Assembly: GCA_965243105.1 (NCBI GenBank)
Contig: CBDEUC010000001.1
Coordinates: 346,093-410,092 of the forward strand
Origin: Gammaproteobacteria bacterium
GTDB lineage: Bacteria > Pseudomonadota > Gammaproteobacteria > Eutrophobiales > Eutrophobiaceae
Direction: 5' to 3'
DNA: 64,000 bases
Shown: positions 26,159 to 64,000 of the stretch, in pieces
Layout: the number at the start of each line of letters is the position of its first letter
How positions within the stretch are numbered: the stretch's first letter is position 1
The notes under the pieces: generated by a model
Databases searched by the model: none
The model's input: only the letters and a program-made list of their open reading frames with translations
What the model was told of the DNA's origin: nothing
Made by a program: the position numbers and the translations under genes

Positions 26159-26372
26159 TTTTTATTCTCCCAAATCGATTAATCGGTGGATTGTATTGAA
26201 CTGTCATCCACAATGAAAGTCACTCGGACAGGCGAATAATACTGTTACGGGTCTGCCTCGCAGGCGTTTTTTCGTTAAAGCGAGCCTATTTGGAGATAAA
26301 CCTGTTAGACTAGGATGTGTAAGAGTACTGGATCGAAGTTTTACTGCAGATAGAAGACCCTGTTTATTTAGA

Positions 26373-26395
26373 TGGTGCCCAGGAGAGGACTTGAA
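26373..26395 (-). repeat. att core: 23-bp duplicate of tRNA-Leu 3' end
   Basis: TGGTGCCCAGGAGAGGACTTGAA identical to 28495-28517. Confidence 0.95.
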
Positions 26396-26426
26396 ACTAT
26401 TTCGGGTTCGCAATATACGTCTTAAT

Positions 26427-26439
26427 AATCAATGACATA
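26427..26439 (+). promoter_or_regulatory. IHF-like binding site between att core and arm repeats
   Basis: AATCAATGACATA vs consensus WATCAANNNNTTR (1 mismatch). Confidence 0.45.
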
Positions 26440-26457
26440 TCTGAGTCGCGATATTCC

Positions 26458-26475
26458 GCGGGACCCCAAAGGGAC
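26458..26475 (+). repeat. Arm-type-like repeats, left end
   Basis: GCGGGACCCC-AAAGGGAC; GGGAC cores 11 bp apart. Confidence 0.6.
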
Positions 26476-26550
26476 TGAGATAACAATAAAATCTGTACAA
26501 CTTTTAACGTAAAAAGCATACGGATTTCAGAGTTAGCGGGATATTTGGTA

Positions 26551-27126
26551 TCACGCTAGATGTTCCATAAGAAGGCCCTTCATTTTGTTACTTTTCGTAA
26601 TGAATTGTTCGCAGTGAGTCGTAAATAATTTTACTACTCCGTCTTTGTTGTTTTCTAATTCGTTTGTAAATCGTTTTTCGTCTTCGTTTAGCTCACAGAG
26701 ATAGTATCTGAGCGCCGGTATGGGTGCTGACATGCCGTCCATATCAGATCTTTGATAGAAAGCGGTGATGAAAAGTTCGCTATGGTGATTTGAATTCCTT
26801 AGCTTGGTAATGACTTTGTGTTCAAGAGTTACAGGCTGAATTATGTTAGTTCGGGCATCATCAAGATTTAAATCAAACGCACGGTTAATATTGGTGTAAA
26901 CGCGACGTTGTTTTTCTATGTAGTTGTGAGATTTTTCAAGATAACTCTCGACAAGAGATTCCCACTTTAATTCTTCAGTCATGCCTACGCCGGTATAGCG
27001 ATTAAAAATCTCATATTTCAGGAATAATTCAAAAAACTGAATTATTTCTACGCAACTTCGTTTTAGCATGTAGCCGTAATGCACAAAAGCAATTTGTATT
27101 TTTTCTTCAGCTTCTCTTTTTTTCAT
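26551..27126 (-). CDS. Hypothetical helical protein with HEPN-like RxxxxH motif
   Basis: 191 aa ORF; ITKLRNSNHH at 26782-26805; 28 bp downstream of the upstream ORF. Confidence 0.7.
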   Translation of the reverse strand: MKKREAEEKIQIAFVHYGYMLKRSCVEIIQFFELFLKYEIFNRYTGVGMTEELKWESLVESYLEKSHNYIEKQRRVYTNINRAFDLNLDDARTNIIQPVTLEHKVITKLRNSNHHSELFITAFYQRSDMDGMSAPIPALRYYLCELNEDEKRFTNELENNKDGVVKLFTTHCEQFITKSNKMKGLLMEHLA

Positions 27127-27154
27127 GGATAACTACAAATATAAGATTCCTGAG

Positions 27155-28168
27155 TTAACCTCTGTTAACTGGCTTAGTGAATAATTCAACAGCTTGTTGA
27201 ACCGCGTTTTGCCCAATCATACTATCCTTAGTATACCCAGTCCCCTGCGGTCCAAATATACAGGCAGCTGCGTGAACCAAAATTACTTCACTGTTTGGAG
27301 TATCGCCAGCTGCGTCAACTAGTGCCTTGTAGGTAAGAAGCGCGTTTTGTCGATGTCTATCGACAACCTGGTTGTGTTTGTGCGCATTGTAATTTCGTAT
27401 GCACACGAATAAGTATGTTGAGATGACAACGAAGATTAAAACTTTTGAAATTGCGATATGAAAGGGATCTGCTTCCTGAAGCCAGGGGATCAAGTGAAAA
27501 AATAGACTGCTGACTGCGTAACCCCCCAATATACCGCCAGTGATCAATATTCGAGTATGCCAAGTATCGGCATCTTCCTTGTGTTTTTTTACTGATGAAT
27601 CGAAATGGACAGCTTGTTGTGATACTCCTAACTCGCCAGCCGCTTGGCGAACACTTTCAAGCATGGAGTTTACACTTGATTCAGCCTTTGTAATTCGTTC
27701 AACAATTTCATTCGTATTTGATTCAATTTGCTCGATTGCACCTTTTGCCTCCTTTTCTAGTCGGCCGAAGTCTGTAACACGCTGAGCGGAATATGCAATG
27801 ATTGGCTGAAGAGTATCAAACACAGTTTGATAATGGTCTGTCAGGTTGGCCAGCAATGCTGTACGTGTACCTGCAGCGTTTTCTTGTGTGGATGTAAAAT
27901 CCAGTATGTCAGTAAATAACTTGTAGTGCTGTTCGGCAGTCTGAGTTAGTCGTACTAAATTTCGTTCTGGAAAATCACTTAATGCATCTAATGCAATTTG
28001 GCCATACAAATTAATTATTTTCTCTGCCGGCTCGACAGCTTCACCGAATGATAATGCACGGCCCAAATCAGCTTCTCTGACAAGTGAGTTTGCATCGAAC
28101 TCCTTAATTTTTCTGATTACATCAAGAGCTGTATCTAATTTTGTCTCTGGTGGGTTTTCATCAGCCAT
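27155..28168 (-). CDS. Hypothetical coiled-coil + 2-TM membrane protein
   Basis: 337 aa; AGGAGG RBS; heptad-like segment EKEAKGAIEQIE...; two hydrophobic segments; C-terminal NYNAHKHNQVVDRHRQNALLTY. Confidence 0.85.
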   Translation of the reverse strand: MADENPPETKLDTALDVIRKIKEFDANSLVREADLGRALSFGEAVEPAEKIINLYGQIALDALSDFPERNLVRLTQTAEQHYKLFTDILDFTSTQENAAGTRTALLANLTDHYQTVFDTLQPIIAYSAQRVTDFGRLEKEAKGAIEQIESNTNEIVERITKAESSVNSMLESVRQAAGELGVSQQAVHFDSSVKKHKEDADTWHTRILITGGILGGYAVSSLFFHLIPWLQEADPFHIAISKVLIFVVISTYLFVCIRNYNAHKHNQVVDRHRQNALLTYKALVDAAGDTPNSEVILVHAAACIFGPQGTGYTKDSMIGQNAVQQAVELFTKPVNRG

Positions 28169-28225
28169 TTGAACACCTCCTTCGTTCTCTAGCGTCTAAA
28201 AAGAATCAATACAATAAAGCACAAT

Positions 28226-50651: not shown

Positions 50652-51320
50652 TCAGTGAATGTTGAGCCAGTCCAGGATCTGCATGGGTGTCTCGACACTG
50701 CCATCGGCTTTCCAGCCTGCGGGATCATCGGCATCGTCAAGATAACCATAGGCGGCAACAAGTGTCGCCATGCCCGCCCGTTGACCGGCCTCGATATCAC
50801 GCCTCGCATCGCCCACGTAAAGCGCCTCGTCCGGCTTGCATTGCAGCAGCTCACAGGCATGCAGTAATGGGGCAGGGTGGGGTTTCGGATGTGCCGCAGT
50901 GTCTCCGCTGACAATACAGGGAGTCCGGGTATCCAGTCCAAGCTCGCGCATGAGTGGGTTGGTTAGCCAGCTTACCTTGTTGGTCACGATGCCCCAGGGT
51001 GCGCCATTTTCATCGAGCACGGCGAGTAGTTCTTCCATGCCGTCAAACAGCACGGTGTGCTGCCCGATATTTTCCGAATAGGCCTGTAAAAAACGGTACT
51101 TCAGGTCTTCAAACTTTTCGTCATCGGCATCGATACCAAAAGCGCCGCGTATCATGGCTACCGCACCCAGTGAAACGGTGGGGCGGATTTTTTCAAGTGC
51201 GAGCGGCGAGTGTCCTTCTTCCTGCAGTACCCTGTTCAGGGCCCAGGCAAGATCCGGCGCGGTATCCGCAAGGGTACCATCCAGGTCCAGTAACAGGATG
51301 CCGGGTTTGACTGCACTCAC
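50652..51320 (-). CDS. gph: HAD phosphatase, phosphoglycolate phosphatase-like
   Basis: DLDGTLADT, VTNK, KPHPAP, VGD..RDIEAG; GTG start overlapping ubiG stop. Confidence 0.9.
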   Translation of the reverse strand: MSAVKPGILLLDLDGTLADTAPDLAWALNRVLQEEGHSPLALEKIRPTVSLGAVAMIRGAFGIDADDEKFEDLKYRFLQAYSENIGQHTVLFDGMEELLAVLDENGAPWGIVTNKVSWLTNPLMRELGLDTRTPCIVSGDTAAHPKPHPAPLLHACELLQCKPDEALYVGDARRDIEAGQRAGMATLVAAYGYLDDADDPAGWKADGSVETPMQILDWLNIH

Positions 51321-52033
51321 TCGCCAGTGCCTTTCCGTGCGTGCAAGAGATAATTGATCGAGGGGTCGTCGTTGATATAACAACGATCTGCACCGGGAAC
51401 GTAGTGCATGCCGCTGATATTCACTATCTCAAGATCCAGTTTGCGCAGGCCTTGAGCCAACTCCGATGGCTTGAGAAATTTCCCGTAATCATGGGTACCG
51501 CGCGGCAACAGCCTGAGCAGGTACTCGGCGGCGATTACCGCACCAAGATAGGCGCGTATGTTCCTGTTGAGTGTCGCAAGAAACAGGTCTCCACCGGGCT
51601 TTAGCATGTGACCGCAGGCAGACAACAGGGAATGGGGATCGGGTACGTGCTCCAGCAGTTCCATGCAGGTGATAATGTCAAATTGCTGCGCCTGTGTTTC
51701 GGCAAACTCCTCCGCGGTCACCGCCTGGTAATCAATCTCAAGAGCCTGCTCCGTAGCATGGTCCGTGGCCGTGCGTATTGCACCTTCGCTGGCATCAATG
51801 CCGGTGACGCGGGCCCCGCGACGGGCCATGGCTTCGCTGAGTAGACCACCGCCACAACCGACGTCGAGCACCCGGCTGTCCTGCAGGGATCTGCCGTCGT
51901 CGATGTACTGCAGGCGTACCGGGTTGATGACGTGCAGGGTCCTGAGACTGCCGTTTGGGTCCCACCAGTCCTCCGACAAATGTTCAAACTTGTCGACTTC
52001 TTCTGCGTCAGTGTTCCTGGTGATGTCGTGCAT
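51317..52033 (-). CDS. ubiG: Ubiquinone biosynthesis O-methyltransferase
   Basis: WWDPNG...LH..NP.R, LDVGCGGGLLSE, C.E.LEHVPDP, LPRGTH. Confidence 0.97.
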   Translation of the reverse strand: MHDITRNTDAEEVDKFEHLSEDWWDPNGSLRTLHVINPVRLQYIDDGRSLQDSRVLDVGCGGGLLSEAMARRGARVTGIDASEGAIRTATDHATEQALEIDYQAVTAEEFAETQAQQFDIITCMELLEHVPDPHSLLSACGHMLKPGGDLFLATLNRNIRAYLGAVIAAEYLLRLLPRGTHDYGKFLKPSELAQGLRKLDLEIVNISGMHYVPGADRCYINDDPSINYLLHARKGTGE

Positions 52034-52253
52034 GGGCTTCGCGAAACAAATTATTCAATGAAATCAATAAACAGGCGATATAGCTTTCAAGGGGCGGTAT
52101 TTTATCCCGAATAGCGATGCAAGTATTGCAGTGACAGGCCTGATCGTTAAGAATATGACAATAAATCGATATAAATATGACATGTTTTGTTTTCTCGGCC
52201 TCATATGCCACGTTCATGGTTGCTGAATAATAATAAATAAGGATTATCCATCG

Positions 52254-52994
52254 ATGACAACACGTTTCCTCGAATCTACCCGCACTGTCTTTTGTTTCCT
52301 GCTGATCACGCTTGCCAGTGGCTGTGCCAGCACCGGTGGTATCAGCGAAGGCGATCCCTTTGAAGGCTGGAACAGGGGCGCGTTTAAATTCAACCAGTCC
52401 GTGGACGAGCACTTTTTCAACCCGATTGCTGAAGTCTATGACAAGGTGTTGCCCGAGGTAGTTAACGACGGGGTGACTAACTTTTTCAGCAACATCAACG
52501 ATATCTCCGTCATCATTAACGATGTCCTGCAGGGCAAGTTTAACCAGGCTTTTTCTGACCTGGGGCGTTTCGTGGTCAATTCCACGCTCGGTATTGGCGG
52601 CTTTTTTGATGTGTCCACCGATATGGGTATGCCAAAACACCGTGAAGACTTTGGCCAGACGCTGGGCGTCTGGGGTTTTGATTCCGGGCCGTTTCTCATC
52701 GTGCCTTTTCTTGGACCCACAACAGTCCGTGCCGGGATAGGCCTCGGTGTTGATACTATTGCACTTAACCCCACCACTTACATGGATGACCGCGTGCTTG
52801 CCGGTGGCCTGATGGCGCTGCAGTACATGGATTTCAAGGCGGACCTGCTGAGCACGGGCGAGTTACTGGGTATTGCAGCGGTTGATGAATACGGTTTTCT
52901 CAGGAGCGTGTTCCTGCAATATCGCGACAGGGTGACCCGTGATCTTGATGCAGATGACCTGGAAGACGCGCCGGACTTCGACTCTTTTGACTGA
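52254..52994 (+). CDS. mlaA: MlaA/VacJ family lipoprotein
   Basis: Lipobox LASGC; DPFEGWNR, NST.GIGG.FD, EDFGQTLG.WG, PFLGP.T.R. Confidence 0.92.
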   Translation: MTTRFLESTRTVFCFLLITLASGCASTGGISEGDPFEGWNRGAFKFNQSVDEHFFNPIAEVYDKVLPEVVNDGVTNFFSNINDISVIINDVLQGKFNQAFSDLGRFVVNSTLGIGGFFDVSTDMGMPKHREDFGQTLGVWGFDSGPFLIVPFLGPTTVRAGIGLGVDTIALNPTTYMDDRVLAGGLMALQYMDFKADLLSTGELLGIAAVDEYGFLRSVFLQYRDRVTRDLDADDLEDAPDFDSFD

Positions 52995-53036
52995 TTGACC
53001 GCAGTCGTGATGGCCGTCACGCGGCCAGTGATGTGA

Positions 53037-53828
53037 TTATTCTTCCGGCAGCTTGATCCTGCTGTCAGATATTCCCAGTGAACTGGCAAATTCAACCAGG
53101 CGGCGTTGCTTGCTGAGAGAGGAGTCATCGTCCACCAGCCCGGACAGTGCCTGCTCTTCAAGCAGTTGCCGGTAAATGGCATTGGTCAGTTGTCCCAGTG
53201 CCACGCTCTCATCGGTGGCGGTGATTTCCTCGTTGGACAGTGCGGACCAGTCCTGGCTGAATTGGCCGAGGCTGTCTTCTGACCAGTTGTTGTTTGCCAG
53301 GAATTCCTTGATAAGCTCTTCGGCTTTTCCAGCGGCGGAGGACACACTCTCGCTCGCCGCAGGCTCAGCCCCGGATGACATAGCTTGAGCCATATCGCCT
53401 GTAGAAGAAGCGTCAGCTTTTTCATCCTTGCCGCCCATCATGCCGACAACGGCAACGCCAATGAGAACCACGGCGACGACAAGGCCAATGATGATTCCCT
53501 TGTTGGATGATTTTTCTGCGGCCGCTGCTGTTGCTGGCGCTGTCGGGGCAGGGGCGGCTTCGCTCTTTGCCGCTGCAGCATCATCTGCGCTGGCAGCGCC
53601 ACCCCCCTCTGCGGCAGGCTTGCGTTTTAAATCCTCGCGACGTTCAGTGGTATCCAGGGATTCCGGTTCAGGTGGCTGCACAGGGGGTGGATAATCGATT
53701 TCAGCCAGTGATACGTTGCCGGCAACGATACCCTGCAAAAGCTCCGCCCTGGATTTGCGATAGTCGTCCTTTTCCAGGTTGCCCAGCGAGTATTGCTTGG
53801 CCAGTTGGCGCAGGGTTTGATTTGCCAT
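53037..53828 (-). CDS. Hypothetical bitopic membrane protein with N-terminal SHOCT-like motif
   Basis: TLRQLAKQYSLGNLEKDDYRKSRAELL; Pro/Ala linker; one TM (IIIGLVVAVVLIGVAVV); helical C-domain. Confidence 0.8.
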   Translation of the reverse strand: MANQTLRQLAKQYSLGNLEKDDYRKSRAELLQGIVAGNVSLAEIDYPPPVQPPEPESLDTTERREDLKRKPAAEGGGAASADDAAAAKSEAAPAPTAPATAAAAEKSSNKGIIIGLVVAVVLIGVAVVGMMGGKDEKADASSTGDMAQAMSSGAEPAASESVSSAAGKAEELIKEFLANNNWSEDSLGQFSQDWSALSNEEITATDESVALGQLTNAIYRQLLEEQALSGLVDDDSSLSKQRRLVEFASSLGISDSRIKLPEE

Positions 53829-53848
53829 TTCGTCGATTCCTTTTTGTT

Positions 53849-56800
53849 TTACCCGACTTCTTCCAGTACCAGCCTGAAACCAGTGGTTTCATCTGCGTCA
53901 CCGTCATGAGGTCGTTGCAGCGAGATTTCACACTTGGCATGGGCATCAGAGAATGCACCGCCGGCGGCAATCGTGCTGCCTCCGTCATCAACCCACTCCT
54001 GCACGTTGCCGACGTAGTTTCTTAAACCCCAGCCGTTTGGCGCACCCTGCTTGATGTCGACGATACCGCTGCCTTTTAACATGCTGTCTCCCAGCACCAC
54101 GCGACAGTTAACGTCCTTGGGTGGTTGCTTGCCCGCGGCATTGGCCGCGTGCGTCCATTCTGCCTTGCTGGGTATACGATAGGTTTTCCCGGTTCGCTCC
54201 GACAACCAGGCTGCGTATTCCCTTGCCTGTGCCAGGCTGACACCGCGAACGGGTTCGTTGTGCTTGGCCTTGTCGGTTTCCGGTTTGCATTTACCACTGA
54301 GTGCACAATACTTGCTCCAGTCAGCCACGGAAATCTCGTAGCGACCAATTGCGAAGGGCTTGGCCACTTCGCCACCTGCGGGGATCACTACCATCACCGG
54401 TCCACGCCAGCCGGTAAAGACCAGGTCATAACAGGCTGCCTTGGAACGTTTACCATGACCTGCCATGTTGGGAGCGCATTCACGTCCACTCGGTGTTGGC
54501 GACCATTCCATTTGAGACAGGTCTTTTTCCGCTTTCTTGCCACTGTCATCCGCACCGCCATCACCGGTAGTCGGGGCAGCAAAGCTTATCTCTTCCTCGC
54601 GTTTCATCACGGTGATAACCAGTCCGCTCAGCTGCCTGCTGAGGGCAGCAAAGTCACGATTATTTGCCCACAGCGCCTGGGCATTTTTCAATACGGCCAG
54701 GCCTTCATCCCGTTTTGCGGTTCGTGCATTCTTGTCGCGTTCGTTGATTGCCAGGCCTTCTTCATGAATCTTTTTTGCATTTTCATAAATGGCATTGGCT
54801 TCTCTCATGTCGCTTTCAAGCTGCGCCCTGAGCTGGGCGACTTTTGGATGACCGCTTTGTTCTGCAGGAATCGTCAGCAGGATCCTCTGTGCCTCGCCGA
54901 GGTCGCGGTCTTGATAGGCCGCTGTGGCCGGCGCAAGTTGCTCGGGATCTTCAACCTTGCCGACCTGGGCGGCAAGGTTGGCCAGTACCGTGCTGCCTTC
55001 GAAGACGGCAATGGCGTCGTTGGCAAGTACTGCTGCCGCTGCCTCGTCGGTTGCCAGCAGGTCATTAATACGCTGGCTCAGTGCAGCTTCAGATGAACTC
55101 AGGAATTCCGAGTAGCGTCCTGAGCCATAGGTTTCAATCTGGGTCACACGCGCACTGACGTCATCCACATTCAGTCCAACCGCATTGCTGAACAGGTCAG
55201 AGAGTTCGGCAATGTTGACTTCAACCTCGTATTCATTTTTCTGGCGTGTCAATTCGCTATTATCCGGCGCAAAGTTCAGGCCAGCCTGGGCCAGTTGAAA
55301 AGCGGCGCCGAAGTCTGACTGGTCTCCGCGGCGTTGTGCCAGCCTTGAATAACTGTCTGCCAGTTTTGCCGGTCCCTCGGTAGTGATAAGCGGGTCATCC
55401 GGTACCAGTGACTGTAGCTCGGTAAAGATTCGGCTGGCCTGGGTCACGCGGTCGGCATCCACGTTGAAAGAAAACTGTTCCTTCAAGTCAGCGATACGTG
55501 CCAGTCTCTCGATCTCGTTCTTGGTGCTGGTAATCTTTGTGCGGGCATTGGCCAGCAAGCTTGAGCCGGGTGCAAGTCTTTCGGCGCGGTTAACCAGGGC
55601 GGTTGCCGCATCAAAACGTTCTTCCTCGATAATCGCATCGGCCTGTTCAACATAGAGTTGCGCGATGCTGTCACGATAACCTTGAAGGTCCGCACCGACT
55701 GATTCATCTTCAGACTGGAAACTGTCAAGCTGGCGAATACTGGCCAGCAGTTCGGATTCCCAGGCCGGGTCATCAAGCGCCGGGGCTGCAAGTTTCTCCT
55801 CGATGATGGCCTTGTCGCTGCCTACAAATTCCTGCACCGCTGCAGTTCGTTCCGCACCACTCAGGTGGGCCAGCCGGACCTGTACAAGTTCACGTCCAAG
55901 CTGCAGGGAGGAGAGCAGTCCACCATAATTTTCAGCAAGCGCCACCGCGTCATCGCGGTTACCGTCCTTGAGAATGCTTTTCAGTTCCGTATCAACACTG
56001 CTCTTCAACTGGTCGGTAAGTGTCTGCAGTACCGGTGATTCGCTTGTAGAACTTAAATCAGCCAGCGTGATGATATCGTCCTTGTAGTTTTCAAACGCTG
56101 CCATTGATGTCATCTCGGCCTGTGCAGCCCCCAGTGTTTCATTCAACTGGGCAACGGTGATGGCATTATTCACCTTGGTCTGCAAGTCAGTCAGGCGTAC
56201 ATCATCCGGCGCACTGGCAAGACCAGAGGTCACAAACGCAAGTGCCTGTTCAAAGTTTCCGCTGCTGAAGGCTTCCTCCGCAGCAAGACGGTAAGCGTTA
56301 CTCGGGCGCGGGTCATCCAGTAGCGGATGCGCCGGGTCGATCTTTGTGCGAATAATTTCCAGTATATCCTTCGTGCTGTCGATCACATCCGGGTTTTCCT
56401 GGGCCGCCTTGGGATCAAGTGCAGCAATATAACTCTGGTAGAGTTCACCCACTTTTTGTTTCTTGTTGGTATCAATTTCCTCGGTCTGCTCGGCGAGGAA
56501 CACAGACTCCGGATAAAAATAGGCGACTTCAGTGAGTACTTCGGCGGCTTTTGGAAAATTATAATTGTCACCGCTGGTGTTGATGTGCTGCGCGATTTCT
56601 GCAGCAAAGTAATCCTGGATGGCCTGCTTGGCCTCGGTGGTGATAAATGTCTGGTCAGCCTGGTCCATGCCACGAATTTCATCCAGCTTGGCAACCATGA
56701 GCTGCTTGTTGCCCTGGTTCATCTCGGCAACAATTTCGTCATTCTTGATTCGCTGCATGTAATCAAGTGCCGGATTGATGGCAATCAAGCCAACGACCAG

Positions 56801-58309
56801 CAGGATACCGGCGGCGATAACAAAAGGGTTCTTGTGCCAGGTAGCCTTACCCTGGACTTCATCAATGAAGTGTTCAACGGTAGGGCTTCTGTCTTCGCGT
56901 TTAAAAGCAACTGCACGCCTGAGCGCACGATTTTGTTTCTTGTTTAATCCCTTGACCGGTGCGGGTACAAGACCATTTTCCAGTGCCGTTGTCGCGGGTA
57001 ACTTGTTAAACGGATGTTTTCCTGTGAGCAGCTCGTAGGCCACGCAACCAAGTGCGTAGGTATCATCACGGGTATCAGGTTCTTCACCCTGTAACATCTC
57101 AAGGGAGGCGTAGGCCGGTGTTAGTGCACCGAGCTGGCCCGGATCGAAAAGCGTTTTTTCCACTTCACCGGTAACCGGGTTCTTAACGGCACGTGCGATA
57201 CCAAAGTCGAGGGTTTTTACCGTGCCATCGTTACAGTAAAACGCGTTACCGGGTTTGAAGTCGGAATGCACCAGTCGCAGGTTATGTGCATAGGTAAGGC
57301 CTGCGCCAAGTTGCTCGATAATCTTGAATGCTTCATCAAAGGGGAGGCCGCCCTGTTTCTTTACATGCTTCTTAATGTAGTCCTTGAGCTCCATGCCCTC
57401 CATGAGCTCCATGGTGATATACACCGGAGTACCCGGACCACCGACGCGGTCAAAGTCATAGATGGTTGCAATGTTCGGGTGTGCCAGTTTTTGCTGGCGT
57501 GACGATTCTCGCTGTAGCGAGATAAAGGCTTCAGGGTGATCCTTGAAGTCCTCGTTGAGAAGCTTGATAGCAACGTGGGGTTTCTTGTCCCTGGCTTCTT
57601 CCTTTAGCAGGTCGATGGCCTTGAACACCTTACCCATGCCACCAATACCGAGAACGCTAAGCAGTTTAAAACGCTGCTTGATGATATCGCCTTCACCCAG
57701 TTCCTTGCCGGGCGTGGCGCCACCACCGGCCTGGGGTGGTTCAAAGCCGGTACCTGCAGGCCCCGTACCACCTGTTGTTTCGGCCTGGGTAAAACCGGAG
57801 CTGAGATCGAAATCCACGCCGCTCGTATCGGTTGAACTACCGCCGGTTCTTTCTTCCTCGCTCATCACCTGCGTGGCACCATCGTCCTGCACCACGGTGG
57901 AGTCTTCGCTGCCTACCGCGCCGGCGTTATTGGCTACGGTCTTGTCTTCATCGATGGCGGCGTTGTTGGCAACCGTCTTGTCTTCGTCGATGGCGGCGTT
58001 ATTGGCTACCGTCTTGTCTTCATCACCGGCAGGCATATCTTCCTGTGCGAACACGGTTGCATCACCTTCGGCAGATCCGCCTTCGGTTGCCGCAGCGTTT
58101 TCGCGTCGGAACTGGTTAATCTGTGCCTTGATCCCGGTGTAACTTTCGTCACTGATGCTGCCCTGTTCCCTGGCCTCATCAAGTTGGGTCAGCATCTTTG
58201 TTGCAAACTGGGGATTGGTATTCAGCAGTTTGTCGATTTGTTTCGCCAGTGCATCGGCACTGAGCTTGCCTGAACCCAGTGCCTCCAGGGCAGTTTTAAA
58301 ATCAGCCAC
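53849..58309 (-). CDS. Membrane Hanks-type Ser/Thr kinase with large helical periplasmic region and C-terminal FGE-sulfatase-like domain
   Basis: LGIGGMGKV, VAIK, HSDFKPGN, DFGIA, TPAYAS, D.YALG; TM FVIAAGILLVVGLIAI; C-term HNEPV.GVS..QA.EYA.WLS, RIPS.AEW, NGWGL...GNV.EWV, GFRLV. Confidence 0.93.
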   Translation of the reverse strand: MADFKTALEALGSGKLSADALAKQIDKLLNTNPQFATKMLTQLDEAREQGSISDESYTGIKAQINQFRRENAAATEGGSAEGDATVFAQEDMPAGDEDKTVANNAAIDEDKTVANNAAIDEDKTVANNAGAVGSEDSTVVQDDGATQVMSEEERTGGSSTDTSGVDFDLSSGFTQAETTGGTGPAGTGFEPPQAGGGATPGKELGEGDIIKQRFKLLSVLGIGGMGKVFKAIDLLKEEARDKKPHVAIKLLNEDFKDHPEAFISLQRESSRQQKLAHPNIATIYDFDRVGGPGTPVYITMELMEGMELKDYIKKHVKKQGGLPFDEAFKIIEQLGAGLTYAHNLRLVHSDFKPGNAFYCNDGTVKTLDFGIARAVKNPVTGEVEKTLFDPGQLGALTPAYASLEMLQGEEPDTRDDTYALGCVAYELLTGKHPFNKLPATTALENGLVPAPVKGLNKKQNRALRRAVAFKREDRSPTVEHFIDEVQGKATWHKNPFVIAAGILLVVGLIAINPALDYMQRIKNDEIVAEMNQGNKQLMVAKLDEIRGMDQADQTFITTEAKQAIQDYFAAEIAQHINTSGDNYNFPKAAEVLTEVAYFYPESVFLAEQTEEIDTNKKQKVGELYQSYIAALDPKAAQENPDVIDSTKDILEIIRTKIDPAHPLLDDPRPSNAYRLAAEEAFSSGNFEQALAFVTSGLASAPDDVRLTDLQTKVNNAITVAQLNETLGAAQAEMTSMAAFENYKDDIITLADLSSTSESPVLQTLTDQLKSSVDTELKSILKDGNRDDAVALAENYGGLLSSLQLGRELVQVRLAHLSGAERTAAVQEFVGSDKAIIEEKLAAPALDDPAWESELLASIRQLDSFQSEDESVGADLQGYRDSIAQLYVEQADAIIEEERFDAATALVNRAERLAPGSSLLANARTKITSTKNEIERLARIADLKEQFSFNVDADRVTQASRIFTELQSLVPDDPLITTEGPAKLADSYSRLAQRRGDQSDFGAAFQLAQAGLNFAPDNSELTRQKNEYEVEVNIAELSDLFSNAVGLNVDDVSARVTQIETYGSGRYSEFLSSSEAALSQRINDLLATDEAAAAVLANDAIAVFEGSTVLANLAAQVGKVEDPEQLAPATAAYQDRDLGEAQRILLTIPAEQSGHPKVAQLRAQLESDMREANAIYENAKKIHEEGLAINERDKNARTAKRDEGLAVLKNAQALWANNRDFAALSRQLSGLVITVMKREEEISFAAPTTGDGGADDSGKKAEKDLSQMEWSPTPSGRECAPNMAGHGKRSKAACYDLVFTGWRGPVMVVIPAGGEVAKPFAIGRYEISVADWSKYCALSGKCKPETDKAKHNEPVRGVSLAQAREYAAWLSERTGKTYRIPSKAEWTHAANAAGKQPPKDVNCRVVLGDSMLKGSGIVDIKQGAPNGWGLRNYVGNVQEWVDDGGSTIAAGGAFSDAHAKCEISLQRPHDGDADETTGFRLVLEEVG
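57923..58024 (-). repeat. 36-bp coding tandem repeat x3 (DEDKTVANNA)
   Basis: Units at 57923, 57959, 57995 differ only at synonymous positions. Confidence 0.95.
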
Positions 58310-58342
58310 GGACTCTTACTCCACTTTTGAACTTAAAGATTA

Positions 58343-59077
58343 TTAATCTACGTCAATAATGATCGCAGTCACATTATCACCCGCACCACGGTCGAGTGTT
58401 TGCTGGATCATTTTTTTACAGCATTCTTCCGGAGTTCCTTCTTTCATCATTTCTTCGAACTCAAGGTCGTTCGTATGCTTGGTCAAACCATCACTGCAAA
58501 GCAGGTAGCGGTCACCACTTTTCATCTCCTGGATATCCATATCAAGAAAGAGGTTGTCAGCTGCACCCACGGCGCGGGTTATCATGTTGCCGTGTGGATG
58601 AACTGCGGCTTCCTCGCGCGAGATCAATCCCTGTTCAACGTAAACTTCCACCTGCGAATGATCGGTGGTCATTTGTCTTAATTCGTTATCGCGTAAGCGG
58701 TACAACCTGCTGTCACCTGCCCAGGCATAAAGGCAATACTTTCCAAAGCTCAGCATCAATACCACGGTACTACCGATGGTGACTTTCTTCTCCGCTTCTC
58801 TTGCCTTTGCCACGAGCTTCCTGTTGACATCAAGCAGGCGTTCTTCAATGTCATCGATGTAGCTTTCAAGTTTCACACCCTCGTGAACCTTCTTCATCGC
58901 TTCAACGATCATCTGGCTGGCAACATCGCCCTTGGCGTGTCCGCCCATGCCATCAGCAACAACCCAGAGACCGATTTCCTTGCGATCAAGCATCGCGTCT
59001 TCGTTGTGCTTACGCGCCTTACCAACGTCGGTTATGCCATAGGAGTTGACACTCATGGACTGTACCGAATCATTCAT
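58343..59077 (-). CDS. PP2C/PPM family Ser/Thr phosphatase
   Basis: TDVG..R..NED, VADGMGGH, GDSRLY, DHS, LLCSDGL, DNVT. Confidence 0.96.
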   Translation of the reverse strand: MNDSVQSMSVNSYGITDVGKARKHNEDAMLDRKEIGLWVVADGMGGHAKGDVASQMIVEAMKKVHEGVKLESYIDDIEERLLDVNRKLVAKAREAEKKVTIGSTVVLMLSFGKYCLYAWAGDSRLYRLRDNELRQMTTDHSQVEVYVEQGLISREEAAVHPHGNMITRAVGAADNLFLDMDIQEMKSGDRYLLCSDGLTKHTNDLEFEEMMKEGTPEECCKKMIQQTLDRGAGDNVTAIIIDVD

Positions 59078-59115
59078 TGATTAATTCCCTTTCCAGGCTA
59101 TGCAGTTGCTTGCGA

Positions 59116-60018
59116 TTAAATTTCATGGGCAAAGGTAACGATCTCTGTTGGCGATTCGTTAAACGCTTTCCCCAGGCTTATCTGTCCACGGCCCTGTAGC
59201 GGCATTTCTTCCCGTCTTAAAAATTCCTCGTCGGAATTTTCAATCAGCACGTGCGTTCCGTTAGTGCTCTGGTCAATGATAAAAAACTTGTCCCGGCGTA
59301 GCTCGATACGAACGTGCTGGCGTGATGCCATCTTTTCATTGACAGGCAGGTCACATGCGTTGCTTCGACCCATCATCAGGCCGGATCGTGCTTTGTCCAT
59401 GACAATGTCCTGGCCGTTGTAACTCACGCGCAGTTTTACTTCCGGTTTCATGTCTTCTTCCATGAGACCGGTTGCCATGCGAGTGACGTCTTCTTCCTGC
59501 CAGATAATTTCGTAGATCTCGATCTCTTCCTGCTTACCCTTGATAGGCGCGCGGTCTACAAAGCGGGTGGCAGCGCGCAGCATCGGCGCAAGAAGATCAA
59601 CGCTTGATTGCGTGGTGATAATTTGTCCGCCCTTGGCCTGGGCTGCCATTCGGGCTGCAACGTTTACAGCATCACCAAACACATCGCCGCCTTCCATGAT
59701 GGCCGGACCAAAATGAAAACCGACGCGAATTTGGAGCTTGATGGAATCACTGACACCCTCGGTGATGTCTTCCTCGAGTTCTTCATGCATTTCCATCGCA
59801 GCGTTGGCTGCATCATCGGCGGTGGGGAAGGTGCACATGATTTCGTCACCGATGGTTTTGATCACCGTGCCGCTGTGATTTTTCGTTACCCCGGTCAGCG
59901 TATCGAGACATTCTGATACCTTCACCCTGGCGGTAGCATCACCCAGTGTTTCAAACAGGCGTGTGCTGCCGCTCACATCGGCGAAAAGGATTGCAAGGTT
60001 GGTTGTTTTTGGCGCCAT
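59116..60018 (-). CDS. Class III adenylate/guanylate cyclase with C-terminal FHA domain
   Basis: FADVSGST, IKTIGDEIM, RVGFH.G, DVFGDAVNVAARM; FHA: MGRS..CDL, SRQH, DQSTNGT. Confidence 0.95.
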   Translation of the reverse strand: MAPKTTNLAILFADVSGSTRLFETLGDATARVKVSECLDTLTGVTKNHSGTVIKTIGDEIMCTFPTADDAANAAMEMHEELEEDITEGVSDSIKLQIRVGFHFGPAIMEGGDVFGDAVNVAARMAAQAKGGQIITTQSSVDLLAPMLRAATRFVDRAPIKGKQEEIEIYEIIWQEEDVTRMATGLMEEDMKPEVKLRVSYNGQDIVMDKARSGLMMGRSNACDLPVNEKMASRQHVRIELRRDKFFIIDQSTNGTHVLIENSDEEFLRREEMPLQGRGQISLGKAFNESPTEIVTFAHEI

Positions 60019-60361
60019 TTAAGTACTTGTTTTCCCAGACAAATTTTTCAATTTTTGTAGTATACCGGGATGTTGGAACCCGCTTTTCACCCCGTATGTT
60101 CGCTGTTGCCGCACATGGACGAAATCACTTGTAACGCAGGCTTCGCCCCTCGCACAAACGACGGCTAGGCAATCATAGCTGTTATACTTTCTTTAGTCAT
60201 CATCATATTCCATTATTCTTTAAGGTAAAAACCCTGCTCAGGACGGCCCGAGTGGAGGAAACCGCCCGCCACTTGCAATCACCCTTGCTATGGCTGGTAT
60301 GATACCGGTCCCTGGTGTATAACCCCATGATCATTCATATTTTTTGTGACATTCAACCACT

Positions 60362-61390
60362 ATGAAAAACATTAGCCACGTCGTATTGCTGTCATTTCTC
60401 GCCATCCTGCTTGCCCTGCCAGCGCACGCGGTGTCAATCCGTAGCCTGCTGGGGCTTGATGATGAGGAAGAGGCCGCAGAGGAAACCCAGCAGCAAGCGG
60501 CAAAAAAAGAAGCGGCCGCGGCGCCGTCAAAGACCAGCAACAACTGGGCACAATCAAAACAACCCGGGGTCGACCTGGACCTGGTCAAGCGCCTGCTGCT
60601 CAACCTTGAACCGGGAAAAGGGCGTGAGATCATCGCCAACGAAGAGGCCTTTGCCCAGTTTGTTCGGCAGGAGGTAAATAATTACTCGGTGCTATCTGCT
60701 GCCCGGGCCAACAAGCTTGATGAAGATGCGAACACCAACTTTCTCATGCAACGCGGTGCCGAGAATATCCTGCGCGAGATTTACCTGAATCGCCTTATCC
60801 GTGAAAAGTTGCCAAAAGATTTTCCGAGCCAGGAACAGGTAAAGGAATACTACGACAAGAACAAGGACAAGCTGGTGACACCGGAACGCGTGCATGTGTG
60901 GCAGGTGTTCTGGCCGGTGACTGATGACATGGATGAAAAGGCCGTGGCTGCACTTAACAAGAAAGCCAATGATATTGCCGATCAAATTCGCAAGAACAAG
61001 CTCAGCTTCAGTGATGCTGCGGCAAAGCATTCAAAGCACCGGCAAAGTAATTCCAATGGCGGTTACATGGGCCTGATCAATTCGTCGGATCTGAAACCGG
61101 AGATCAAGAAATCCATTCTTGAACTGGGCGAAGGAAAAATCAGCAAGGCATTGACGACGGAAACGGGTATTCATGTCGTCAAGCGTGGTGCCATTGTTGC
61201 GCCTCGACAGATTAGCCTTGAAGAAGGTGAAGTACAGGTGAGAAACCTGCTTGTGAACCAGGTACGGGCGCAGTTGCGCAAGGCTATCTATGAGCAGGCT
61301 GCAAAAACCTATCCACTTGAAATTTCCGATAACAAGATTGAAGAGTGGCGCCTGCGTTTAAAAACCAACGTTGATGCGCCGAAGAAATAA
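60362..61390 (+). CDS. Exported PpiC/parvulin-type peptidyl-prolyl isomerase
   Basis: Signal peptide; F.DAA.KHS...S..NGG.MG, G.IS....T..G.HVVK. Confidence 0.85.
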   Translation: MKNISHVVLLSFLAILLALPAHAVSIRSLLGLDDEEEAAEETQQQAAKKEAAAAPSKTSNNWAQSKQPGVDLDLVKRLLLNLEPGKGREIIANEEAFAQFVRQEVNNYSVLSAARANKLDEDANTNFLMQRGAENILREIYLNRLIREKLPKDFPSQEQVKEYYDKNKDKLVTPERVHVWQVFWPVTDDMDEKAVAALNKKANDIADQIRKNKLSFSDAAAKHSKHRQSNSNGGYMGLINSSDLKPEIKKSILELGEGKISKALTTETGIHVVKRGAIVAPRQISLEEGEVQVRNLLVNQVRAQLRKAIYEQAAKTYPLEISDNKIEEWRLRLKTNVDAPKK

Positions 61391-61489: not shown

Positions 61490-62242
61490 TTACTTGCCGG
61501 AGATGAGGCGGTTCGCTGCTTCTTCGTCACCGCGATCAAGCAGGCACTGCCCGGTCTTGTCGATGGCAATACTGAACTTGTCCCCGTAAGACTGCATTTC
61601 GTAGGTCTTCAGCTTGGCCTTCATACCGATCGCGTAGGAAGAACCCAGCAGGCCCATGCCATCAGACTTGGCATCACCCATGATCATTTTCATCTTGTGA
61701 CGACGGCCGCGAACCTGGTCATAGGGACCCCACACTCCGGGTGCGGCAAAGGGACCACCTCCGGTCATCACATCAATGAGCATTTCTTTCGGGCTTTGCT
61801 TGTGACCAAGTGCACGAAAGTCATCGCCGCCTTCAAAGAACTGGAAGTTTTCAATGCCACATTCGTCCGTGACCGGGTAGTGATACCTGTCAAGGGAACT
61901 GGCCGAGTAGCTCTGCGGCATTTTCAGTCCGCGTGTAAACACACGTTTTTTCTCGCCACGGTTTTTTAACTCCTGGCCAATGGCGATGATGAAATCCTGG
62001 TTGCCGTAGGGGCCATCAAAAACTCTCTTTCCACCGATTGACCTGTAATCACGCTCAAACACCTGTTTTTCCCTTCTAGCGGAGACCACGACCTCTTCCA
62101 GGGTCTGGGTATTCTTGATTTTCTTGTACTCTTCATCGTCACTCGCCGCGTTGGCGATCAATGCCGGGTAGGAGGAGGAAAGTGTGATTGCTGCTAACGT
62201 TACTGCAAGCTGGATAGGACGTTTACTATTTATTTTTTTCAT
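61490..62242 (-). CDS. Hypothetical exported protein with TonB-box-like motif
   Basis: Signal peptide then LEEVVVSARRE; 250 aa, two Cys. Confidence 0.75.
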   Translation of the reverse strand: MKKINSKRPIQLAVTLAAITLSSSYPALIANAASDDEEYKKIKNTQTLEEVVVSARREKQVFERDYRSIGGKRVFDGPYGNQDFIIAIGQELKNRGEKKRVFTRGLKMPQSYSASSLDRYHYPVTDECGIENFQFFEGGDDFRALGHKQSPKEMLIDVMTGGGPFAAPGVWGPYDQVRGRRHKMKMIMGDAKSDGMGLLGSSYAIGMKAKLKTYEMQSYGDKFSIAIDKTGQCLLDRGDEEAANRLISGK

Positions 62243-62706: not shown

Positions 62707-62757
62707 TTAAACGAATATTGATAAATAAAAATCGGGTTGGAAAACGTGAGGAAAATC

Positions 62758-64000
62758 ATGGGGAGGACGCTCAGTAAAGAGTGGCACTGTCTTATCGGGT
62801 CATTTTTGCTGACTTTGACATCATTGCCGGCCCTTTCCGGCCCAATAGGATTGCCCGATTCCGCCCGTCCAGGGGCGGTGCGGCCGGAAGAAGTGGGCAA
62901 GCAAATCGTCCCGCAATCACCGGATACCAAGGTTCTCGAGGTGCCGGCGGTTATCGACAGGCCTTTCGAAGTGGATGAAGGCCCCAAGGTCGCAGTGAAT
63001 TCGTTTCGAGTTCTTGGCGCCAAGGATATGCCACGTTTCGGCATCAAGGTCAGTGAAATCGATGCCATCCTTGCTGAAACCGTCGCCGCCAAGCCCGAGG
63101 GCTTTACCATCGGCCAGATGGAAGAAACCAAGGACCTTGTCACCCAGTACTATCGAGAAAGGGGCCTGATCCTGGCCCAGGCCGTGTTACCCGTTCAAAC
63201 CGTCTCGGGCGGTATCGTTGACCTGCAGGTTTATGAAGGCCTGCTTGGCCGCGTGCTGGCCGAGGGCAACGAGAGTTATTCGCGCGACATGCTCTCCGCG
63301 CCCTTCAAGCATCTCATCGGCAAGCCCGTCACCAAGGAAGAAATCGAGGCGGCGGTACTCAGCCTCACCGATTTCCCCGGCCTTAGCGTGTTTGGTGTGT
63401 TTCAACCTGGTCAGCAGGTGGGCACCGCCGATATCGTACTCAAGGTGCAGGAAGAAGATCGCTTTGACTTTGCCATGCGCACTGATAACCACGGCCTGCA
63501 AAGCACCGGCCGAATCCGTTTTCGAACTACCGTCGACTGGAACAACCCGACCGGCGGTGGCGACCGCGCCAGCGTGACTGTGCAACAGGGTTACCAGCCA
63601 AAGGGTAATACCTTTATCTCGCTCGACTACGAGCGTTACCTTGGGCGAGGCTTCAGGGCCGGCGCCTTTCTCAACAGGAACACCTTTAAGGTTGTCGACG
63701 GCCCGCTGGCTTCCCAGCGTATTACCGGTGAAACCGAGCAGATGGGTGGATGGATAGAAAAGAACTGGTTACGCAGCCGCTCCATGAACATCGGCTCACG
63801 TCTTTCCCTGGCGCGAAAAGAATCCCATGCAAAACGTCGTAACCGTTTTGTAAACCGTGACCGTCTCACGGTGCTGGCCCTTGAAACGACCTTTGACAAC
63901 GTGGATACACGCTTCAAGGGTATTAACTTTGCCACCCTCGAACTCAGTCGCGGTTTTGACGACGTGTTTGGTGCCATGGGCTCAGGCGCAACCGCAAACC
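62758..64000 (+). CDS. ShlB/FhaC/HecB family two-partner secretion transporter (TpsB), partial
   Basis: My translation from ATG 62758: signal-like N-terminus, POTRA-like ...VTQYYRERGLILAQAVLPVQTVSGGIVDLQVYEG, LTDFPGL, DNHGLQSTG; runs off the window end. Confidence 0.88.
   Translation, partial: MGRTLSKEWHCLIGSFLLTLTSLPALSGPIGLPDSARPGAVRPEEVGKQIVPQSPDTKVLEVPAVIDRPFEVDEGPKVAVNSFRVLGAKDMPRFGIKVSEIDAILAETVAAKPEGFTIGQMEETKDLVTQYYRERGLILAQAVLPVQTVSGGIVDLQVYEGLLGRVLAEGNESYSRDMLSAPFKHLIGKPVTKEEIEAAVLSLTDFPGLSVFGVFQPGQQVGTADIVLKVQEEDRFDFAMRTDNHGLQSTGRIRFRTTVDWNNPTGGGDRASVTVQQGYQPKGNTFISLDYERYLGRGFRAGAFLNRNTFKVVDGPLASQRITGETEQMGGWIEKNWLRSRSMNIGSRLSLARKESHAKRRNRFVNRDRLTVLALETTFDNVDTRFKGINFATLELSRGFDDVFGAMGSGATAN

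Follow-up and report, generated by a model that had tools for sequence, protein, structure and literature searches.

A conserved operon that probably links phosphothreonine signalling to cyclic AMP in uncultured Gammaproteobacteria

Introduction

Can a bacterial receptor kinase and its phosphatase set the synthesis of a cyclic nucleotide by way of phosphorylated threonine? The question is raised by four neighbouring genes in a 64,000-nucleotide stretch of DNA (the window), which covers positions 346,093 to 410,092 of contig CBDEUC010000001.1 in the assembly GCA_965243105.1 of a gammaproteobacterium of the family Eutrophobiaceae. The genes encode an adenylate cyclase fused to an FHA domain (cyclase-FHA), a phosphatase of the PP2C family, a giant Hanks-type receptor kinase, and a small membrane protein (the partner). 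Bacterial Hanks kinases and cyclic AMP (cAMP) signalling are usually treated as separate networks, and a soluble cyclase that reads phosphothreonine would directly join the two. The public annotation of the cyclase-FHA protein is only 'adenylate/guanylate cyclase domain-containing protein', and no study of an FHA-regulated bacterial cyclase, or of any cyclase-FHA member, was found in a literature search outside which most subscription journals lay. The analysis reported here indicates that the operon is probably a dedicated phosphothreonine-to-cAMP signalling module, in which an envelope signal would be converted to cAMP by a mechanism drawn from sequence, conservation, and analogy. The module is real and apparently undescribed.

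Operon organization and gene order

Four open reading frames (ORFs) on the minus strand span positions 53037–60018 in the order cyclase-FHA, PP2C, kinase, and partner, with intergenic gaps of 38, 33, and 20 bp. The original prediction, made from the letters of the DNA, had described four co-oriented genes with gaps of 20–38 bp that supply a writer, an eraser, and a reader joined to an output enzyme; the ORFs and gaps were located as it had placed them, and each of these parts was present with conserved catalytic or binding residues. The end of the operon is marked by MlaA (52254–52994, plus strand). Scans of the operon for promoters and terminators returned chance levels (8 against 5.4 ± 2.3 and 14 against 10.7 ± 2.7).

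Relatives were scanned using one genome per species, which gave 62 loci, nearly all from uncultured Gammaproteobacteria, and gene order was counted in the 56 loci with a full-length cyclase-FHA (46–90% cyclase identity). PP2C was the next gene downstream of the cyclase wherever this could be tested (53/53 loci), the kinase came next after PP2C in 50/51, and the partner lay directly downstream of the kinase in 41/42. Co-occurrence elsewhere, which had been proposed as a check, could therefore be observed, with the four genes together in about 50 genomes. The same order recurs across 56 species-level genomes, and the four-gene arrangement is no chance juxtaposition.

The cyclase-FHA protein and its linker threonine

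The cyclase domain was recognized by the Pfam family PF00211 (E=3.8e-20; 72.7 bits against a cut-off of 21.9) and the FHA domain by PF00498 (E=1.3e-10; 42 bits against 20.7). The metal-binding D14 and D58, the ATP-specifying pair K54 and D112, and N119 and R123 were invariant in 41–57 clade orthologues, and the same six catalytic residues were 95–99% conserved in 140 divergent family representatives (39–59% identity). The FHA pocket (G217, R218, S232, R233, H235, N253, and G254) was likewise invariant in 41–57 orthologues, and its phosphothreonine-binding residues G217, R218, S232, H235, N253, and G254 were 99–100% conserved among the 140 representatives. The protein is a minimal, soluble, ATP-type class III cyclase with a canonical FHA domain. 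The nearest solved relative, both by sequence and by fold, was Ma1120 (phmmer 5.8e-19; Foldseek TM-score 0.87, E=1.4e-14). The AlphaFold2 (AF2) model, with a predicted local distance difference test (pLDDT) of 86 and a predicted TM-score (pTM) of 0.58, revealed two rigid and confident domains at residues 1–172 and 195–300 joined by a low-confidence linker.

The linker is variable within the clade except for the motif W173-Q-x-E-D-V-T179-R-M-x-T-G, in which T179 was present in 57/57 orthologues. Among the 140 representatives, T179 was 96% conserved, on par with the catalytic K54, D112, N119, and R123; position −2 was D, E, or N in 85% and position +2 was M, I, L, or V in 84%, and the linker positions neighbouring the motif were not conserved. 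The low pLDDT of the T179 segment is consistent with a flexible tether. Docking of the linker threonine in the FHA pocket was considered and was not predicted by AF2 (pTM 0.58), a model that cannot represent phosphorylation.

These features bear on another reading, that of a cyclase with constitutive activity whose FHA domain does no more than anchor it at the phosphorylated kinase or partner. Synthesis of cAMP would then be local to the envelope sensor, and phosphorylation would set its place and not its amount. The minimal build of the cyclase, with no recognizable regulatory domain besides FHA, fits such a role, as do the multicopy docking motifs that sit on a membrane protein (described below). 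The tether threonine, invariant across the family, however, implies phosphorylation of the cyclase itself, and T179 is retained in solitary family members without an adjacent membrane kinase. We regard control of location only as quite unlikely, and control of the cyclase through phosphothreonine is the reading followed here.

A threonine consensus common to kinase and cyclase

The principal new finding is that the consensus [DE]-x-T-x-hydrophobic occurs in three places, namely the kinase activation loop, an array before the kinase domain, and the cyclase-FHA linker. The activation loop reads E384-x-T386-[LI]-F388 in 47–48/48 kinase orthologues. In the array of these 48 orthologues, the motif [DE]xTx[IVLMF] was seen 135 times compared to 18.9 ± 4.1 times in composition-preserving shuffles, a 7-fold excess whose statistics overstate independence because the kinase orthologues are related. 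Motif density was 2.4 per 100 amino acids (aa) in the array against 0.27 in the rest of the kinase (9-fold), and the copy number varied from 0 to 9 among the orthologues. Within the array of the window, the three 36-bp tandem units had only synonymous differences in their 10-aa core. The cytoplasmic linker of the partner carries the shorter form [DE]-x-T in 38/45 orthologues, without a hydrophobic residue at +2 (e.g., GDTTQEI; SLDTTERR in the window).

Two more motifs, [VI]DFD[IL][ST] and TGPTGT.W..P, could be observed in nearly all kinase orthologues at residues 163–190 (about 57740–57823, minus strand).

Receptor kinase, phosphatase, and membrane partner

The GTG start of the kinase agrees with the conserved N-terminus MADFKTALEAL of the 48 orthologues. 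The cytoplasmic part consists of a helical N-domain (residues 1–75), the disordered threonine-motif region (76–206), and the kinase domain (207–490); a transmembrane (TM) segment at about residues 495–520 leads to a helical, weakly TPR-like periplasmic region of about 770 aa. The protein is thus a transmembrane receptor, as had been proposed, with a large periplasmic part. The Pkinase match (E=5.6e-35, 121.5 bits) covered residues 215–441, and the FGE-sulfatase match (E=5.1e-15) covered residues 1314–1442. The VAIK motif with the catalytic lysine, HSDFKPGN, and DFG were conserved in the 48 orthologues, and the kinase is classed as non-RD because HSD was invariant in 48/48. The FGE-like domain was present on every kinase orthologue, and its nearest solved structures were ToxD (7spq; 6.8e-10) and PvdO (5hha; 9.3e-9), both non-canonical members of the FGE superfamily.

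The phosphatase matched PF13672 (PP2C_2; E=3.1e-13, 50.2 bits against a cut-off of 24) and scored 221.3 bits (E=1.2e-65) against the NCBIfam equivalog NF033484 (Stp1), just under its cut-off of 230. The protein is a PP2C close to the Stp1/IreP family, short of certification as an Stp1 equivalog.

The partner is without a Pfam family. Its AF2 model revealed a confident cytoplasmic two-helix hairpin (residues 6–36) followed by a disordered linker with a D-T-T motif, and the periplasmic five-helix bundle had no fold relative in the PDB (best E 1.2). Partner orthologues fall into two length classes, of which the window has the short form. In the long-form partners (560–690 aa, about 19 loci), the C-terminus is formed by a complete FGE-sulfatase domain (E=1e-39 to 1e-43); at these loci the kinase retains an FGE-like domain of its own.

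The N-terminal motif of the partner aligned with kinase residues 39–68 (hhalign E=1.3e-4, probability 54%), which is suggestive of homology between the partner N-terminus and the kinase N-domain. The partner had been called 'SHOCT-like' in the original prediction, and this label could not be kept as an assignment. With a gathering threshold of 27 bits for SHOCT (PF09851), kinase residues 40–64 scored 14.6 bits (E=0.028), the partner of one relative (L036) scored 20.6 bits (E=3.7e-4), and the partner of the window had no match. Because PF09851 matched only below its threshold, the term denotes a resemblance.

Distribution of the family outside the clade

An exhaustive search over 1.84 billion cluster representatives revealed the 300-aa cyclase-FHA architecture in 1193 clusters at 50% identity (E ≤ 1e-30) in several phyla, with more than 150 full-length representatives at 39–59% identity. 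The genomic contexts of twelve distant family members were examined. In three gammaproteobacterial metagenome-assembled genomes (L068–L070; 43–44% identity), cyclase-FHA, PP2C, UbiG, HAD, SQS_PSY, CptA, and sdh were located at the same chromosomal spot, and the kinase, the partner, and the two-partner secretion (TPS) genes were absent at the locus. Cyclase-FHA occurred alone, without adjacent operon genes, in L067, L072, and L074–L076, and in L067 it was followed directly by UbiG. The Syntrophaceae and Riflebacteria copies were solitary. In the cultured Usitatibacter palustris (complete genome, CP053073), a Pkinase-dCache-HAMP gene lies 5 kb away from a solitary cyclase-FHA; the unannotated gene that follows this cyclase was considered as a hidden PP2C and rejected, as no similarity was found. 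In one distant context, a gene for an FHA-AAA ATPase was located immediately upstream of cyclase-FHA.

From these contexts it follows that cyclase-FHA is the ancient unit and that, within a portion of the Gammaproteobacteria, its pairing with PP2C is ancient too. The four-gene operon is specific to the clade, since distant relatives have nothing of it beyond cyclase-FHA and, in some cases, PP2C. The expected recurrence of the whole set thus held within the clade and did not extend to distant family members, and the four-gene operon facing the TPS locus is an elaboration specific to the clade of the window.

Several single proteins deserve mention. A 430-aa Hanks kinase fused to a cNMP-binding domain (L073:1978–3270, plus strand) lies 7 kb upstream of a solitary cyclase-FHA and could, in another lineage, provide the reverse link, from cAMP to a kinase. 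The whole cyclase-FHA unit is tandemly duplicated in P0125 (609 aa), and a GGDEF-like N-terminal region precedes it in P0127 (716 aa). No Rosetta-stone fusion of cyclase-FHA with PP2C or kinase was found among the longer family representatives.

Genes of ubiquinone synthesis recur near cyclase-FHA. UbiG is directly downstream of cyclase-FHA or PP2C in L067–L070, UbiE and UbiB flank the solitary L072 copy, UbiB is 9 kb away in Usitatibacter, and UbiG of the window is located at 51317–52033. The pattern may be plain synteny because it is absent in Syntrophaceae and Riflebacteria.

A module that reports on or controls ubiquinone or respiratory status would explain these neighbours, together with the presence of UbiG in 37/40 clade loci. 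Copies in other phyla have no ubi neighbours, nor do L073 and L074; the ubiG-HAD-sdh block is ordinary conserved synteny, and no mechanistic connection is evident. We consider such a link highly improbable.

The divergent secretion locus

The parvulin gene is the first of a secretion operon that runs divergently from the cyclase, an orientation observed in 40/45 loci. The part of TpsB within the window matched POTRA_2 (E=9.8e-12) and ShlB (E=2e-11), and TpsB was located within 3 kb upstream, divergent, in 33/35 testable loci. TpsA of this locus lies beyond the end of the window. In relatives, TpsB is followed by a giant ORF of more than 1750–2877 aa that is still open at the locus end, and the TPS secretion domain PF05860 was found at the N-terminus of TpsA in L001, L012, L030, and L053 (E=1e-31 to 1e-35). 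A neighbouring TPS locus, as originally described, is therefore present, with TpsB in the window and TpsA in relatives. For the further proposal that the module is linked to this locus, the part that stands is positional: the divergent adjacency is conserved, and the TPS side is retained in three loci (L030, L049, and L053) where the downstream UbiG flank has been replaced. The back-to-back position with parvulin, TpsB, and giant TpsA suggests that the module monitors or controls adhesin secretion. Par27 of Bordetella is a precedent for a parvulin that binds a TpsA (PMC8151025).

The adjacency also admits a post-translational secretion switch, in which FHA-phosphothreonine contacts would assemble or gate two-partner secretion, as in the pathway of a type VI secretion system (T6SS), and cAMP would be secondary. 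The TagR-like FGE domains speak for such a switch (PMC13713981), as does the conserved divergent position of parvulin-TpsB-TpsA. TpsB and TpsA, however, act in the outer membrane and the periplasm, beyond the reach of a cytoplasmic FHA domain; moreover, the catalytic residues of the cyclase are strongly constrained, and family members without a TPS locus are common. This explanation seems very unlikely to us.

Alignment of 13 loci revealed a conserved block of about 40 nt in the divergent intergenic region (about 60190–60232, minus strand), TTTTT(A/C)CCTT(A/T)AAGAATAATGGAGTATGATGATGACT. It overlaps the promoter-like TTTACC-16-TATGAT (60229–60202) and can also be read as GGAG followed by the ATG with which a short upstream ORF begins; this ORF is variable, with 13 codons in the window and 4 to more than 25 in relatives. 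The block is a candidate promoter with operator, or a candidate leader peptide. The intergenic region had no Rfam match at E ≤ 1. Upstream of the cyclase, a 400-nt stretch contained canonical CRP sites (TGTGA-N6-TCACA with at most 2 mismatches) in 12/56 loci compared to 8.6 ± 2.6 in shuffled sequences, which is not an enrichment, and the window had no CRP site of that kind.

Proposed mechanism

We favour, with moderate confidence, the reading in which the kinase and phosphatase pair controls cAMP synthesis by cyclase-FHA through phosphothreonine, as suggested by the conserved residues and by the analogous systems compared below. An envelope cue would activate the non-RD kinase, probably by oligomerization. 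By analogy with the promotion of PpkA by TagR, this cue is probably sensed by the membrane partner and one or more periplasmic FGE domains. The kinase would then phosphorylate its own threonine array, probably the cytoplasmic D-x-T site of the partner, and T179 of the cyclase. By docking on these phosphothreonines, the FHA domain may bring cyclase monomers to the membrane and change their dimerization or location. The two active sites of a class III cyclase form only in a dimer. Docking would alter cAMP synthesis because of this requirement, and PP2C would erase the phosphothreonine marks and reset the system. The response could be of either sign: on, by scaffolded dimerization, or off, by a GarA-like self-binding of phosphorylated T179.

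A more elaborate form of the mechanism is possible, though we hold it doubtful. The array (0–9 motifs), the partner site, and phosphorylated T179 would form a multivalent network that clusters the cyclase at the inner membrane, and TagR-like FGE domains, placed at the tip of a stalk that spans the periplasm, would sense the TpsA adhesin or the state of the outer membrane, so that this state is converted into graded cAMP. If true, the network would be an undescribed direct wire between bacterial Hanks-kinase and cyclic-nucleotide signalling, and a TagR/PpkA-type envelope sensor would predate type VI secretion or exist independently of it. In the related known system, residues 127–359 of TagR belong to the FGE-sulfatase superfamily, and it has been proposed that two periplasmic domains of PpkA are brought together by a TagR dimer (PMC13713981).

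The locus offers a T6SS-independent setting for FGE/TagR-like periplasmic activation of a receptor kinase, and the module is a candidate regulator of the giant adhesins exported by two-partner secretion in abundant, uncultured Gammaproteobacteria of marine and host-associated habitats. The predictions that arise from it are phospho-sites at T179 and in the [DE]xTxΦ array (Φ, hydrophobic), reader residues R218 and S232, and cAMP as the output.

Evidence that weighs against the proposed module

A number of observations count against a phosphothreonine-to-cAMP module and must be set beside it. Three clade members are without any [DE]xTxΦ motif in the kinase N-terminal region, and the three repeats of the window read D-K-T-V-A, with alanine at +2 and no hydrophobic residue there. 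The AF2 model of cyclase-FHA gave no fixed domain arrangement and no defined contact of the linker with either domain (pTM 0.58). No cAMP receptor (cNMP-binding protein) or CRP site was found nearby in the 64-kb window. No RNA run contained the locus; the only matches were to DNA-type runs of the source sample and to metagenomes from coral and biofilm. The kinase is not an obligatory neighbour, because outside the clade cyclase-FHA sits with PP2C only or alone, and other kinases can presumably serve the FHA domain. Furthermore, part of the gene-order conservation is vertical inheritance, because the whole neighbourhood, including UbiG and the flanking housekeeping genes, is syntenic.

The last of these points lead to the main rival, inherited synteny. 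In that case, an ancient cyclase-FHA and PP2C pair would be served by another kinase, and the giant kinase and the partner would belong functionally to the TPS locus, having simply come to lie between PP2C and UbiG in the clade of the window. The order cyclase-FHA, PP2C, UbiG without kinase, partner, and TPS at the same spot in L068–L070 is what such a history would leave, the kinase and partner and the TPS genes are, within the loci sampled, present together and absent together (33/35 vs 0/4), and the synteny of the flanking genes agrees with it. It is difficult, however, to explain the threonine consensus common to the activation loop, the array, and the cyclase linker if the functions are unrelated. 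The gaps of only a few tens of bp and the invariant order down to 46% identity indicate one operon, and an FHA reader beside a kinase and a phosphatase is the usual bacterial arrangement. We therefore judge inherited synteny unlikely, and the phosphothreonine-controlled cyclase remains the preferred reading.

Features and surroundings of the window

The coordinates of the operon, its parts, and the divergent secretion locus are collected in Table 1.

Table 1. Coordinates of features in and around the cyclase-FHA operon (positions in the window)
Feature	Position	Strand	Basis
Cyclase-FHA gene, 300 aa	59116..60018	-	Pfam PF00211 + PF00498
Soluble class III adenylate cyclase domain, aa 1–172	59503–60018	-	PF00211
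Linker motif W173-Q-E-E-D177-V-T179-R-M-A-T-G, candidate phospho-acceptor and FHA ligand	59467..59502	-	Conservation
FHA domain, aa 195–300	59119–59436	-	PF00498
Cytoplasmic PP2C Ser/Thr phosphatase, Stp1/IreP-like, 244 aa	58343..59077	-	PF13672, NF033484
Hanks-type Ser/Thr receptor kinase, 1486 aa, GTG start	53849..58309	-	Pfam + NCBIfam matches
Acidic Thr-motif array before kinase domain	57692..58084	-	[DE]xTx[IVLMF] counts
Three 36-bp tandem units encoding DEDKTVANNA	57922–58024	-	Tandem Repeats Finder (TRF) period 36, 2.9 copies
Kinase C-terminal FGE-sulfatase-like domain, aa about 1300–1486	53852–54412	-	Pfam
Single-pass membrane partner, 263 aa	53037..53828	-	AF2 model
Partner TM helix, aa 111–131	53436–53498	-	AF2 model
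Partner five-helix periplasmic bundle, aa 166–250, very confident	53079–53333	-	AF2 model
Divergent intergenic region, 343 nt	60019..60361	.	Alignment of 13 loci
Periplasmic parvulin-type peptidyl-prolyl isomerase, 342 aa, signal peptide	60362..61390	+	PF00639, PF13145, PF13616
TpsB (ShlB/FhaC-type outer-membrane transporter), cut by window end	62737..64000	+	POTRA_2, ShlB

The window carries core housekeeping genes, including RecR, MutL, MiaA, HflXKC, PurA, RNase R, DnaB, Alr, RadA, Ffh, SdhCDAB, UbiG, and MlaA. Two minus-strand ORFs at 52008–52640 and 52778–53182, which overlap MlaA in antisense and the 3' end of the partner, respectively, are without a family match and are probably not genes. 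Between parvulin and TpsB lies an exported orphan ORF of 250 aa (61490–62242, minus strand), which has an evident signal peptide, matches no Pfam family, and is kept only in the closest relatives (46–78% identity, about 9 loci). The region 26001–28200, between DUF885 and RNase R, has a low GC content (0.41 vs about 0.53 elsewhere) and contains minus-strand ORFs without a Pfam family at 26551–27126 and 27155–28168; it could be a small foreign insertion.

Comparison with known systems

The cyclase has a common fold with Ma1120 of Mycobacterium avium and the related minimal cyclases Rv1900c CHD and CyaB (TM-score 0.87, 28–31% identity), and it agrees with them in the residues of the ATP type, with a substrate pair of Lys and Asp, two Asp for the metals, an Asn, and an Arg. 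Ma1120 differs in that it has no FHA domain and no linker threonine motif, and no kinase control appeared among the returned entry titles.

A conserved threonine in a flexible segment about 15–35 residues before an FHA domain of the same chain is a likeness to GarA and OdhI; T179 lies 16–36 residues ahead of the FHA core. This layout lets the phosphorylated threonine bind its own FHA domain. The two proteins are actinobacterial FHA regulators switched by N-terminal threonine phosphorylation (PMC5448819, PMC8546545). In the present case, the FHA-threonine unit is fused to an enzyme instead of inhibiting metabolic enzymes as a free protein, D-V-T-R-M stands in place of the ETTS motif, and both phosphorylation and self-binding are putative.

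In the Rv1747/PknF pair of Mycobacterium tuberculosis, a kinase likewise shares its operon with an effector that bears FHA, an ABC transporter with two FHA domains, in which T152 and T210 of an unstructured linker are kinase targets and the FHA-phosphothreonine interactions are multivalent (PMC8339232, PMC3138270). The output there is a transporter, whereas here it is a cyclase and the multivalent threonine array is on the kinase. The kinase and FGE-sulfatase-superfamily architecture itself has been catalogued since 2005 and is also seen in Hanks kinases with C-terminal FGE/DUF323 (NirV-like) domains, such as those of chlamydiae (PMC1262709). Those kinases are without the 770-aa helical periplasmic region, the N-terminal threonine array, and the operon context of cyclase-FHA, PP2C, and partner.

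T6SS structural genes were found neither among the scanned ORFs of the window nor within ±10 kb of the 56 related loci, whose flanks consisted of TPS, parvulin, MlaA, and UbiG. The statement that the window has no such genes was borne out for every ORF scanned, and the description of the circuit as 'T6SS-free' holds for the window and for ±10 kb around related loci, which is the extent shown. Against the T6SS Fha1/TagH model TIGR03354, cyclase-FHA scored 32.8 bits with a cut-off of 120.25, a similarity due to the generic FHA core only.

The TagQRST/PpkA/PppA/Fha1 pathway of the H1-T6SS in Pseudomonas aeruginosa resembles the module in that genes for a transmembrane Hanks kinase, a PP2C, and an FHA reader lie together, and in that a periplasmic FGE-superfamily domain, compared at the superfamily level, is putatively tied to kinase activation; both are probable sensors of envelope state. 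In Agrobacterium tumefaciens, an Fha protein binds phosphothreonine on the membrane protein TssL (PMC3953482). Here, in contrast, an adenylate cyclase and not a T6SS scaffold is joined to the FHA domain, and the output is an enzyme. The kinase itself carries the FGE domain, as does the membrane-anchored partner in many relatives. The kinase is non-RD (HSD), with no vWA domain detected on it, and the neighbouring secretion system is of type Vb and not type VI. The module resembles the T6SS threonine phosphorylation pathway in its way of working without belonging to it.

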